Shown one piece after another: positions 13,901 through 16,900 of a stretch of 29,119 nucleotides of DNA. Position 1 is the first letter of the stretch; the number at the start of each line of letters is the position of its first letter. The stretch lies in IMG/VR virus record IMGVR_UViG_2872152978_000003, one strand, 5' to 3'. This stretch comes from a virus (lineage: Duplodnaviria > Heunggongvirae > Uroviricota > Caudoviricetes). A program made the position numbers.

Positions 13901-16900
13901 AGACAGGTATTCACCGCCACCAGCGCGTTTACTGTACTGACGCGATTTCAGTCATAAAAAACCCGCCAGGCGGCAGGTTTAAGCTGTATGACGGAGTGAC
14001 CAATCTTAACAGATTAAGATGGTTTTTGTTATAACACAAATCATTTCCTCGGTATCTTTATATCCCTTATGTTTCAATCGCCATAGATACCATCAATGAA
14101 AGTCGCTTAAAAAACTCTGTAGCAGCTTTGTCTAACGTTGAATAAGTTCTTAGCTCTCCACGCCCGGGACCAGTCACAACCCACGGACGTCTTTTAGGTG
14201 TTCTGGCTCCCTCCGAAATCACAACACCTGATAGACTGACATCAATTGTTATCTCCGTTCTTGTTTCATCCTCATTAGACTGGCCCCCTGAATCTCCAGA
14301 CAACCAGTATCACTTAAATAAGTGATAGTCTTAATACTAGTTTTTAGACTAGTCATTGGAGTACAGATGATTGATGTCTTAGGGCCGGAGAAACGCAGAC
14401 GGCGTACCACACAGGAAAAGATCGCAATTGTTCAGCAGAGCTTTGAACCGGGGATGACGGTCTCCCTCGTTGCCCGGCAACATGGTGTAGCAGCCAGCCA
14501 GTTATTTCTCTGGCGTAAGCAATACCAGGAAGGAAGTCTTACTGCTGTGGCCGCCGGAGAACAGGTTGTTCCTGCCTCTGAACTTGCTGCCGCCATGAAG
14601 CAGATTAAAGAACTCCAGCGCCTGCTCGGCAAGAAAACGATGGAAAATGAACTCCTCAAAGAAGCCGTTGAATATGGACGGGCAAAAAAGTGGATAGCGC
14701 ACGCGCCCTTATTGCCCGGGGATGGGGAGTAAGCTTAGTCAGCCGTTGTCTCCGGGTGTCGCGTGCGCAGTTGCACGTCATTCTCAGACGAACCGATGAC
14801 TGGATGGATGGCCGCCGCAGTCGTCACACTGATGATACGGATGTGCTTCTCCGTATACACCATGTTATCGGAGAGCTGCCCACGTATGGTTATCGTCGGG
14901 TATGGGCGCTGCTTCGCAGACAGGCAGAACTTGATGGTATGCCTGCGATCAATGCCAAACGTGTTTACCGGATCATGCGCCAGAATGCGCTGTTGCTTGA
15001 GCGAAAACCTGCTGTACCGCCATCGAAACGGGCACATACAGGCAGAGTGGCCGTGAAAGAAAGCAATCAGCGATGGTGCTCTGACGGGTTCGAGTTCTGC
15101 TGTGATAACGGAGAGAGACTGCGTGTCACGTTCGCGCTGGACTGCTGTGATCGTGAGGCACTGCACTGGGCGGTGACTACCGGCGGCTTCAACAGTGAAA
15201 CAGTACAGGACGTCATGCTGGGAGCGGTGGAACGCCGCTTCGGCAACGATCTTCCGTCGTCTCCAGTGGAGTGGCTGACGGATAATGGTTCATGCTACCG
15301 GGCTAATGAAACACGCCAGTTCGCCCGGATGTTGGGACTTGAACCGAAGAACACGGCGGTGCGGAGTCCGGAGAGTAACGGAATAGCAGAGAGCTTCGTG
15401 AAAACGATAAAGCGTGACTACATCAGTATCATGCCCAAACCAGACGGGTTAACGGCAGCAAAGAACCTTGCAGAGGCGTTCGAGCATTATAACGAATGGC
15501 ATCCGCATAGTGCGCTGGGTTATCGCTCGCCACGGGAATATCTGCGGCAGCGGGCTTGTAATGGGTTAAGTGATAACAGATGTCTGGAAATATAGGGGCA
15601 AATCCAGTAACTGTTCATTTATCTTGAATCATTTTCGTGATTCATATAGCAATCCATTTCTAAAGATACCTCGAGCATTGCCAGACACCCTTCAACAAAC
15701 CCTTCAGCTTTCTGCAATCTAATAACAACTTGATTAAGCGATATCCCCATTTTCGCCCCTAACGCTCGTAATGTGATCCCATATACATAATACATTTCCA
15801 GTAATTGGTATTGATATGGTTCCTTTTTCTTGAGAACTGCCATAACTGAACTAATGATAAGACCATCATCATCGCAACATTGCGGTCGATATTTTACTTT
15901 TGAGGGGATGAGGCCTTTAAACCCCGCAGCAATTGGCGACCAACTAACATTCTCATGATTATTTGCCGCCCATGCTCCCCAGCGTTCGAGAACCATCTGA
16001 ATATCACGCATCAACTTTCTCCACAAAATCAGGACAGCACACCTATCGCCAGCGCGCGATCGATAAAACGAAATATCAGCTCCAGTTGGGAACCATACTT
16101 CTCTTCAAATGCCACGGTATCCGCATGCAGTCCGTCATGGTGTTTTCTGCACAAAGGCAACACAAAAAGGTCATGCGCTTTTGTACCCATTCCACCCTGA
16201 CCATGACCAATCAGGTGATGAGGATCGTCGGCTGGCTTACCACAACATGCACACGGCTGCGTCTTAACCCAGCGCGTGTACTTTTCATTAACCCAGCGAC
16301 GACGTTTGGGGCGTAACATAAAAGACTCCGGCGACTCCGGATCCACTTTCAGCGCCAGCACCTTTTTCGCCTTATCCCGGATGATGCTGGTGGCAGGAAC
16401 CGAAGGCACAAGGTCACTTTCCCGGGTGACAGACGGCACAACAGGCTTCGGTAATCTCAGTGCCTTACGGGCTGCACTTTCCGGTAAGGCATCCGCCAGG
16501 TCATTACGAACCAGCCACCAGCACAGTTCCGGCATTGTCACAACGTGGCTGTCATCAAAACCGAGATCACGACGGACTACGGACAACACCCAGCGGGCAC
16601 AGTTATCCGTTGCCATTGATTCCAGACGTTCCGTGAACTGATCGCGAAGCAGGTTATCGCAGTGCCAGCACAGACGGATTGCGCCCGGCGCGTGTCGCAT
16701 TGTGGTCATGTTCTCGCTGTGCCATCCGGAATGAGGCCACTGGCAGCCTTTTTCACGAAGTAACCAGCTCTCAAGGCATTCCACGCCACCAGCACGACGG
16801 ATCACCGCCTCATGGCGGAACACGGCCCGAACGGCAGGATCATCCGCCAGCGGTTGTGATGCTGCCGGAACGGCACCACTGGCAAAAGATGAATAACGTT

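Follow-up and report, generated by a model that had tools for sequence, protein, structure and literature searches.

An IS2 insertion with an adjacent deletion beside the antiterminator gene Q has cost a prophage a cargo gene and is predicted to have spared the putative late promoter

We analysed a stretch of 29,119 nucleotides of Caudoviricetes DNA (IMG/VR record IMGVR_UViG_2872152978_000003), hereafter called the window, in which a copy of the insertion sequence IS2 lies next to the late antiterminator gene Q. The insertion and a deletion on its IRL side have quite probably cost the phage, beside Q, the cargo gene only: the putative late promoter pR' is located farther downstream and appears intact, and Q-dependent late transcription is predicted to have been kept. 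The IS2 allele is an ordinary insertion with an adjacent deletion in a decaying prophage that had already been cut by other insertion sequences. The features on which this reading draws are collected in Table 1.

Table 1. Features of the IS2, Q and late-promoter region (window positions unless marked L001, an IS-free relative)
Feature	Position	Strand	Remarks
Q gene, intact	15619-16011	-	130 aa; Q21/Q933W family; stop codon 15619-15621
Q stop to IRR tip	15607-15618	-	12 bp, sense strand ATGAACAGTTAC; GTAAC at 15607-15611, likely original 5-bp target
Promoter-like hexamers made at the IRR junction	15589-15617	-	TGAACA (flank)-17-TATATT (IRR tip); 9/12 matches
Complete IS2	14276-15606	+	1331 bp
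IRR	15606		...CAAATCCA; right IS2 end, facing Q
orfB of IS2	14690-15595	+
orfA of IS2	14367-14732	+
A6G frameshift motif of IS2	14684		AAAAAAG
IRL	14276		TAGACTGG...; left IS2 end
3' remnant of the cargo ORF (putative WYL fold, 205 aa)	14067-14275	-	last 68 codons + stop; PHROG 8498
Spacer between Q and cargo ORF, intact relative	L001 3947-4012		66 bp
Putative pR' with candidate Q-binding element	14000-14039	-	Sp5/933W homology
-35 of putative pR'	14039-14034	-	TTGTGT
Palindrome at -35/spacer of putative pR'	14036-14027	-	TGTTATAACA
-10 of putative pR'	14016-14011	-	TAATCT, after 17-nt spacer
Start region of putative pR'	14010-14003	-	GTTAAGAT
First intrinsic terminator of the late cassette	13954-13977	-	CCTGCCGCCTGGCGGG then TTTTTTAT
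65-aa ORF, first gene after the module	13636-13833	-	PHROG 331
Second terminator-like hairpin	13632-13649	-	GCCTTCCGCAGTGAAGGC then TTTTTTATTT
N6/N4 DNA methyltransferase, late-region gene	12435-13484	-	PF01555, E 6.5e-44
Three tRNA genes	12136-12424	-	ileZ-like CAT, Arg TCG, Arg TCT
Candidate tRNA promoter	12423-12395	-	TTGCAG-17-TATTAT

The IS2 element and the deletion at its left end

The inserted element has 100% full-length identity to many copies annotated as 'IS3-like element IS2' in E. coli genomes and plasmids; its size agrees with the ~1331 bp of the near-identical reference copies, and it possesses overlapping orfA and orfB frames, an A6G site for -1 frameshifting and imperfect terminal inverted repeats. 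It is the only copy of IS2 within the window. As the preliminary description had noted, the right end of IS2 lies 12 bp past the Q stop codon, and the sequences that flank the element, CTCAT (14271-14275) and GTAAC, do not form a 5-bp direct repeat. The target duplication that accompanies a simple insertion is therefore missing, a mismatch accounted for by a deletion of 463 bp beside IRL. The absent duplication argues against a simple insertion, not against the identity of the element as IS2.

In the IS-free E. coli strain SCU-105 (locus L001), each flank has an exact match of 60 nt; the two matches share one orientation and lie 463 bp apart (L001 3538-4000), and the same 463-bp gap between the flanks was found in three other genomes; a search of the window showed that the missing 463 bp are absent elsewhere in it. 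Because IS-free relatives hold 463 bp between the two flanks, the deletion next to IS2 is, judged by this comparison, real. A sister contig from IMG/VR, IMGVR_UViG_2872174743_000006 (L016/L096), has the same IS2 with an identical junction of Q, 12 bp and IRR, its IRL abuts the base corresponding to window position 14090, and 648 bp are missing beside that end. A third IMG/VR contig ends within IS2, at the identical IRR junction. On alignment the 463-bp and 648-bp deletions are nested and lie on the IRL side. The earlier reading of the missing duplication as the trace of an IS2-associated deletion is thus upheld, both by the IS-free relatives and by the nested sister allele. Since IRR is the junction common to the alleles, GTAAC is likely the original target, with the deletions proceeding from IRL. 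Matches in the junction searches were limited to two IMG/VR contigs, both with the IRR junction, and both IS2 junctions were absent from 5426 complete E. coli genomes, metagenome contigs and species-representative genomes.

The cargo gene between Q and the late promoter

In intact relatives a 66-bp spacer separates Q from an ORF of 205 aa (L001 3329-3946), and the deletion in the window takes 54 bp of this spacer together with the first 136 codons of the ORF. Going by these relatives, what was lost is the leader and the N-terminal, putatively WYL-fold domain of a cargo gene that this phage lineage carries between Q and the putative late promoter. The 205-aa product matches the WYL profile PF13280 over residues 9-64 with 16.2 bits (E 0.01), which does not reach the gathering score of 21.8, and all four homologues give weak matches to PF13280 in the same region, each below the cut-off; the Sm-like beta-barrel fold expected of a WYL domain is present. 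Unlike the WYL-domain regulators BrxR, CapW, DriD and PafBC, the cargo protein, at only 205 aa, has no winged-helix DNA-binding domain at its N-terminus.

A protein search with the cargo ORF returned only 7 relatives, a scan of representative genomes gave no match, and no record in the phage collection had either the ORF or the Q-downstream region of the window. Its distant relatives are located near cI/cII-like genes, not behind Q, and the DNA upstream of them lacks the hairpin of the 66-bp spacer. In strain 266917_2 the same 205-aa ORF is broken by an IS4-like element.

A putative late promoter module downstream of IS2

A candidate late cassette was identified at 13954-14039, ~235 bp past the IRL end of IS2 and upstream of the methyltransferase, tRNA, esterase and holin genes. 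Homology to phage Sp5 and the fold of the terminator are the grounds for reading it as a promoter that carries a Q-binding element and precedes an intrinsic terminator. When the module was aligned with the Q-adjoining module of Sp5/933W, 68 of 105 aligned columns were identical, as compared with 52 +/- 3.4 (maximum 61) in 300 shuffles. For Sp5, dRNA-seq located the PR' start 258 nt upstream of a mapped 3' end (PMC7547250); counted back from the terminator, this start falls within GATAAGAG, which lies 16-23 nt past the Q stop codon, downstream of TTTACG-16-TATCAT, and it is with GATAAGAG that the window sequence GTTAAGAT is aligned. The hairpin at 13954-13977 was missed by a terminator scan and was detected by folding (-18.4 kcal/mol, z -4.4), and in the alignment it corresponds to the first Sp5 hairpin past PR'. 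Over 127 nt the module does not differ between the window, the other IS2 allele and IS-free relatives, one of which, SCU-105, has a complete lambda-like late operon.

These observations bear on several proposals of the preliminary description. The proposal that the deletion had removed pR'/qut finds no support, as the lost DNA consists of the leader and 136 codons, and comparison with the Q-pR' region of 933W-type phages places the homologous module, intact, beyond the cargo remnant at 14067-14275. Nor is the suggested uncoupling of Q from the late genes supported, the module being base-for-base as in IS-free relatives with complete late operons. A dependence of the late genes on an outward promoter of IS2 had also been considered. 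According to a review, the outward -35 of IS3-family elements lies within IRR (PMC9330008); this end here faces Q, and no outward promoter is known at IRL, which is the end toward the late genes. A consensus scan detected no promoter firing outward from IRL, and a laxer scan gave only weak sites with 8/12 matches. The promoter-like hexamers at the IRR junction are oriented into IS2, antisense to the transposase, and may be due to chance, as such sites in the region are not above shuffled expectation.

The distance from the Q stop codon to the module was 740 nt (0.74 kb) before the insertion and is ~1608 nt (~1.6 kb) with IS2, a value inside the range seen in nature. The putative late cassette, with its candidate Q-binding palindrome, -10, TAAGAG-type start region and intrinsic terminator, is unchanged in sequence, and diffusible Q would still act on it in trans. 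Since Q is diffusible, and since the spacing between Q and the module in relatives ranges from 15 nt to 3.3 kb, we predict that Q-dependent late transcription survives. A cis preference has been reported for lambda Q, and this counts against an action of Q in trans.

Palindromic elements and the recognition helix of Q

The Q protein of the window matches Pfam family PF06530 over its full length (profile positions 1-118 of 118, E 3.9e-49) with 165.9 bits, well above the curated cut-off of 26, and differs from that of SCU-105 by one substitution (Y41 in the window, F41 in the relative); its recognition helix is of the ISLNQ class. In every module a perfect palindrome was found at the same place, across the -35 and spacer, and its sequence tracks the recognition helix of Q in 18 of 18 helix variants, from ~130 loci. 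Q proteins with the CSDT helix (6 variants, 68 loci) are accompanied by TTTACGATCGTAAA, those with the CSDG helix (8 variants, 54 loci) by TTTACGTACGTAAA, those with the ISHNQ or ISHNE helix (2 variants, 2 loci), in which the module abuts the Q stop codon, by TGTAATTACA, and those with the ISLNQ helix of the window's own lineage (L016-L022; 2 variants, 6 loci) by TGTTATAACA. The palindrome is also TGTTATAACA in strain 219 (L005), which has an ISLNQ helix with three substitutions. No exception was seen among the loci where the module was found. For loci without a module inside 1.5 kb of Q (CSDTC and CSDGY helix types), it was found in longer flanks, and for the 15 loci with an RSDCW-type Q no such module was detected within a flank of at most 1452 nt.

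The distance from the Q stop codon to the module varies (15, 33-56, 514, 740, 805-824, 1549-1685 or 2873 nt), and the match between helix and palindrome holds at 15 nt as it does at 2873 nt. For instance, in strain SCU-387 the module, with the palindrome GCGTACGC, is located 3.3 kb from Q, past a cytosine methyltransferase gene and divergent HEPN/DUF262 genes, and L066-type loci have an unrelated 197-aa ORF in the same slot between Q and the module. Cargo of varied kinds is therefore common between Q and the putative pR'.

From this correspondence we propose, with about even confidence for and against, that PF06530 Q proteins of the Q933W branch use a palindromic binding element over the -35 and spacer of pR', that the recognition helix sets the specificity, that the element may lie at any distance from Q, and that the interval is a general slot for cargo or defence genes, into which IS2 landed. 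The corresponding helix code would assign a central CGATCG to CSDT, CGTACG to CSDG and TGT-N4-ACA to IS(L/H)NQ. Part of the link between helix and palindrome could reflect co-inheritance of neighbouring DNA, as Q and the module are physically linked.

Two other readings of the region deny the downstream module its role. One would place both the late promoter and qut immediately past Q, within the 66-bp spacer, where they would have been split by IS2 and would have lost their -10, start site and pause element to the deletion, so that Q could no longer modify late transcription. The model for this arrangement is phage 21, in which the annotated pR' -35 begins 7 nt past the Q stop codon (record OL657228) and the cassette is compact, its QBE lying within the promoter spacer, with a pause element and a terminator next to it inside 50 nt (bioRxiv 10.1101/651190). 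The 66-bp spacer has hexamers in the same register in the intact relative (TGAACA-16-TACAGT) and in strain 219 (ATCAAA-16-TATAAT), these are followed, as in phage 21, by a conserved, U-tailed hairpin (-16.6 and -24 kcal/mol, z -4 and -6.4), and the IS2 breakpoint falls inside the putative promoter. Taken alone, these features would favour the preliminary description. However, the spacer contains no palindrome and does not resemble the mapped PR' module of Sp5, conservation of its upstream half is poor in two phages that share ~90% identity in Q, and a full homologue of the mapped module, with a palindrome matching the helix, is present downstream. Other cargo genes in the slot have strong promoter-like sites of their own, such as the TATAAT ahead of the SCU-387 methyltransferase gene. 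The GGAGG ribosome-binding site of the cargo ORF, moreover, is paired within the hairpin; its sequestration would suit a gene-specific leader, and this makes a leader belonging to the cargo gene itself the best reading of the spacer. We regard a late promoter within these 66 bp as improbable, and the phage 21 analogy was dropped after the downstream block had been aligned with Sp5/933W PR' and its palindrome had been found to fit the helix class of Q.

More improbable still is that the downstream module is an inactive relic of an older 933W-like promoter, which would leave the late genes without a Q-dependent promoter with or without IS2. The weak hexamers (TTGTGT and TAATCT, 6/12 matches) are consistent with decay, as are TAAGAT in the start region in place of TAAGAG and the loss of the small hairpin that follows the start region of 933W-type modules. 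Against this stand the occurrence of the same module sequence in relatives with complete, apparently functional late operons and the agreement between the palindrome class of the module and the helix class of Q.

Origin of the IS2 allele

It is plausible that IS2 first entered 7-12 bp past the Q stop codon, with GTAAC as its target, and that one or more deletions then spread from the IRL end into the adjoining DNA, extending, by comparison with the relatives, over 463 bp in the window and 648 bp in the sister genome. A two-sided history, in which an insertion at CTCAT was followed by deletions on both sides, would be less parsimonious. Transposase need not have acted at IRL if a second IS2 in the same orientation was once present nearby and homologous recombination between the copies removed the interval along with one copy, a scenario that we consider possible but rather unlikely. 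Mismatched flanks are its expected product, and recombination between IS copies is a standard account of missing duplications (PMC11708052). In addition, IS2 transposes by a copy-out and paste-in pathway, in which IRR is the only donor end and IRL the recipient end (PMC3299598), and this pathway alone gives no adjacent deletions. On the other hand, two extra insertions within 650 bp would be needed to produce the two nested alleles, and neither a two-copy genome nor the simple-insertion ancestor of the IS2 allele was found among 5426 complete E. coli genomes, IMG/VR, metagenome contigs and species-representative genomes. The nested alleles match the pattern seen for IS150, another member of the IS3 family, in the E. 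coli long-term evolution experiment, where insertion was followed by adjacent deletion and then by deletion extension (PMC11708052).

State of the prophage and implications

Past the pinholin and DUF1327 genes, the window contains an IS1, an IS3-family element, an IS66-family element and another IS1, and no endolysin, terminase or structural genes were found within it. The prophage is defective regardless of IS2, because an IS1 cuts its late operon. With the putative pR' intact, two things would have been lost: the cargo gene and, independently of it, the distal late operon, past the IS1 cut. The candidate tRNA promoter in the late region has an equivalent in Sp5, where a tRNA promoter was mapped at the corresponding place (PMC7547250).

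In Q933W-type phages the late promoter is not always beside Q, and to read an insertion sequence next to Q as a sign that the late genes are uncoupled can mislead; the same caution applies to predictions of Shiga-toxin expression from Q-stx regions. The comparison also yields a testable palindromic candidate for the Q-binding element of Q933W-type proteins and shows a recurrent cargo slot between Q and pR'.

Comparison with known systems

The IS2 allele resembles the IS150 alleles of the long-term evolution experiment (PMC11708052) in that an IS3-family element is retained without a target duplication, with one junction fixed and graded deletions on the opposite side. Unlike the IS150 case, its history is deduced from three natural sequences and was not followed over time, the simple-insertion ancestor was not found, and all IS2-linked deletions are on the side of IRL, the recipient end.

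The putative late cassette is most readily compared with PR'-tR' of Sp5/933W, described for the StxS region (PMC7547250), with which it shares homology from the -35 and palindrome through the TAAGAG-type start to the first hairpin and T-tract, and the two Q proteins belong to the same Pfam family, PF06530, and are ~60% identical. The Sp5 module overlaps the Q stop codon, whereas that of the window is 0.74 kb away (1.6 kb with IS2), behind the cargo gene; the palindrome is TGTTATAACA in the window and TTTACGATCGTAAA in Sp5/933W, and the core hexamers of the window are weaker. The cassette of phage 21 (bioRxiv 10.1101/651190; OL657228) likewise combines a Q of the same family with a binding element in the promoter spacer and a terminator within ~50 nt. 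However, Q21 is only ~32% identical to the Q of the window, and it uses a direct repeat (ATTGAGCA / AATGAGCA) as QBE, in contrast to the inverted repeat that we propose for the window.

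Putative Q-binding element in the late-promoter module

Within the late-promoter module of the window, a perfect palindrome lies over the -35/spacer region (features are listed in the table), and its sequence tracks the recognition helix of the antiterminator Q in all 18 of the 18 helix variants compared among loci L023-L180 from relatives and the window. Proteins with a CSDT helix are paired with the palindrome TTTACGATCGTAAA, those with CSDG with TTTACGTACGTAAA, those with ISHNQ or ISHNE with TGTAATTACA, and those with ISLNQ with TGTTATAACA. The match is independent of the distance between the module and Q (18/18 helix variants), and the palindrome is a candidate for the Q-binding element of Q933W-type proteins. 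A promoter-like site was also noted at the junction of the IS2 right end (IRR) with its flank; it is directed into IS2, where it would transcribe antisense to the transposase, and its TGAACA-17-TATATT match is not above chance expectation.

Coordinates of features in the window and in related loci
Feature	Location	Strand	Details
Perfect palindrome, late-promoter module	window 14027-14036		over -35/spacer
Promoter-like site, IS2/flank junction	window 15589-15617	minus	TGAACA from flank, 17 nt, TATATT from IRR tip
C4 antisense RNA	window 21470-21658	minus	Rfam, 78.8 bits
isrK	window 21470-21658	minus	Rfam, 56.4 bits
sRNA STnc100	window 11855-12060	minus	Rfam, 143 bits; between tRNA genes and esterase gene
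tRNA	window 12310-12385	minus
Two IS1 copies, IS66-family element, IS3-family element	window 2063-2830, 3241-5573, 6757-7916, 7895-8662
Cytosine methyltransferase, divergent HEPN-like nuclease and DUF262 genes	L099 527-3385 (E. coli SCU-387)		3.3 kb interval
197-aa ORF with cysteine pairs	L066 1881-2700		Q-to-module interval; unrelated ORF
Conserved hairpin ahead of WYL-fold ORF	L001 3947-3985; L005 2922-2962		-16.6 and -24 kcal/mol
Two Sp5 terminator hairpins	L100 781-794 vs 991-1003

Cargo genes and insertion sequences

In relatives, varied cargo lies between Q and the late-promoter module, as in SCU-387 and L066. For the WYL-fold ORF, a cargo gene of this interval, folding of two loci (L001, E. 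coli SCU-105; L005, strain 219) places its GGAGG ribosome-binding site in a paired part of the leader hairpin, which is followed on the 3' side by a U-rich stretch; the hairpin could serve as a translational or transcriptional switch. The same ORF is independently broken up in E. coli 266917_2 by the IS4-like ISVsa5 (L002 3457-4653). In the window, the IS1 copy at 7895-8662 interrupts the late operon past the DUF1327 gene, and because of this cut the part of the prophage that lies in the window has no endolysin gene and no structural genes.

Non-coding RNAs and comparison with Sp5

The C4 and isrK matches fall within an ORF (20864-21715); its relative in strain 266917_2 carries the annotation Rha family regulator. 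A second ORF with a Rha domain (21824-22531) lies a short way upstream of the two matches. These matches suggest that the lambdoid prophage of the window has a P1/P7-type c4-ant immunity module. The listed tRNA is called tRNA-Met (CAT) by ARAGORN and tRNA-Ile in annotations of relatives; it is probably of the ileZ type, decoded as Ile once lysidine-modified.

The PR' transcript of Sakai Sp5 has its mapped 3' end at the second terminator, with a length of 258 nt (PMC7547250). At about +35 to +55 Sp5 also has a hairpin of good quality with a T-tract, and the first terminator of the window aligns with it.
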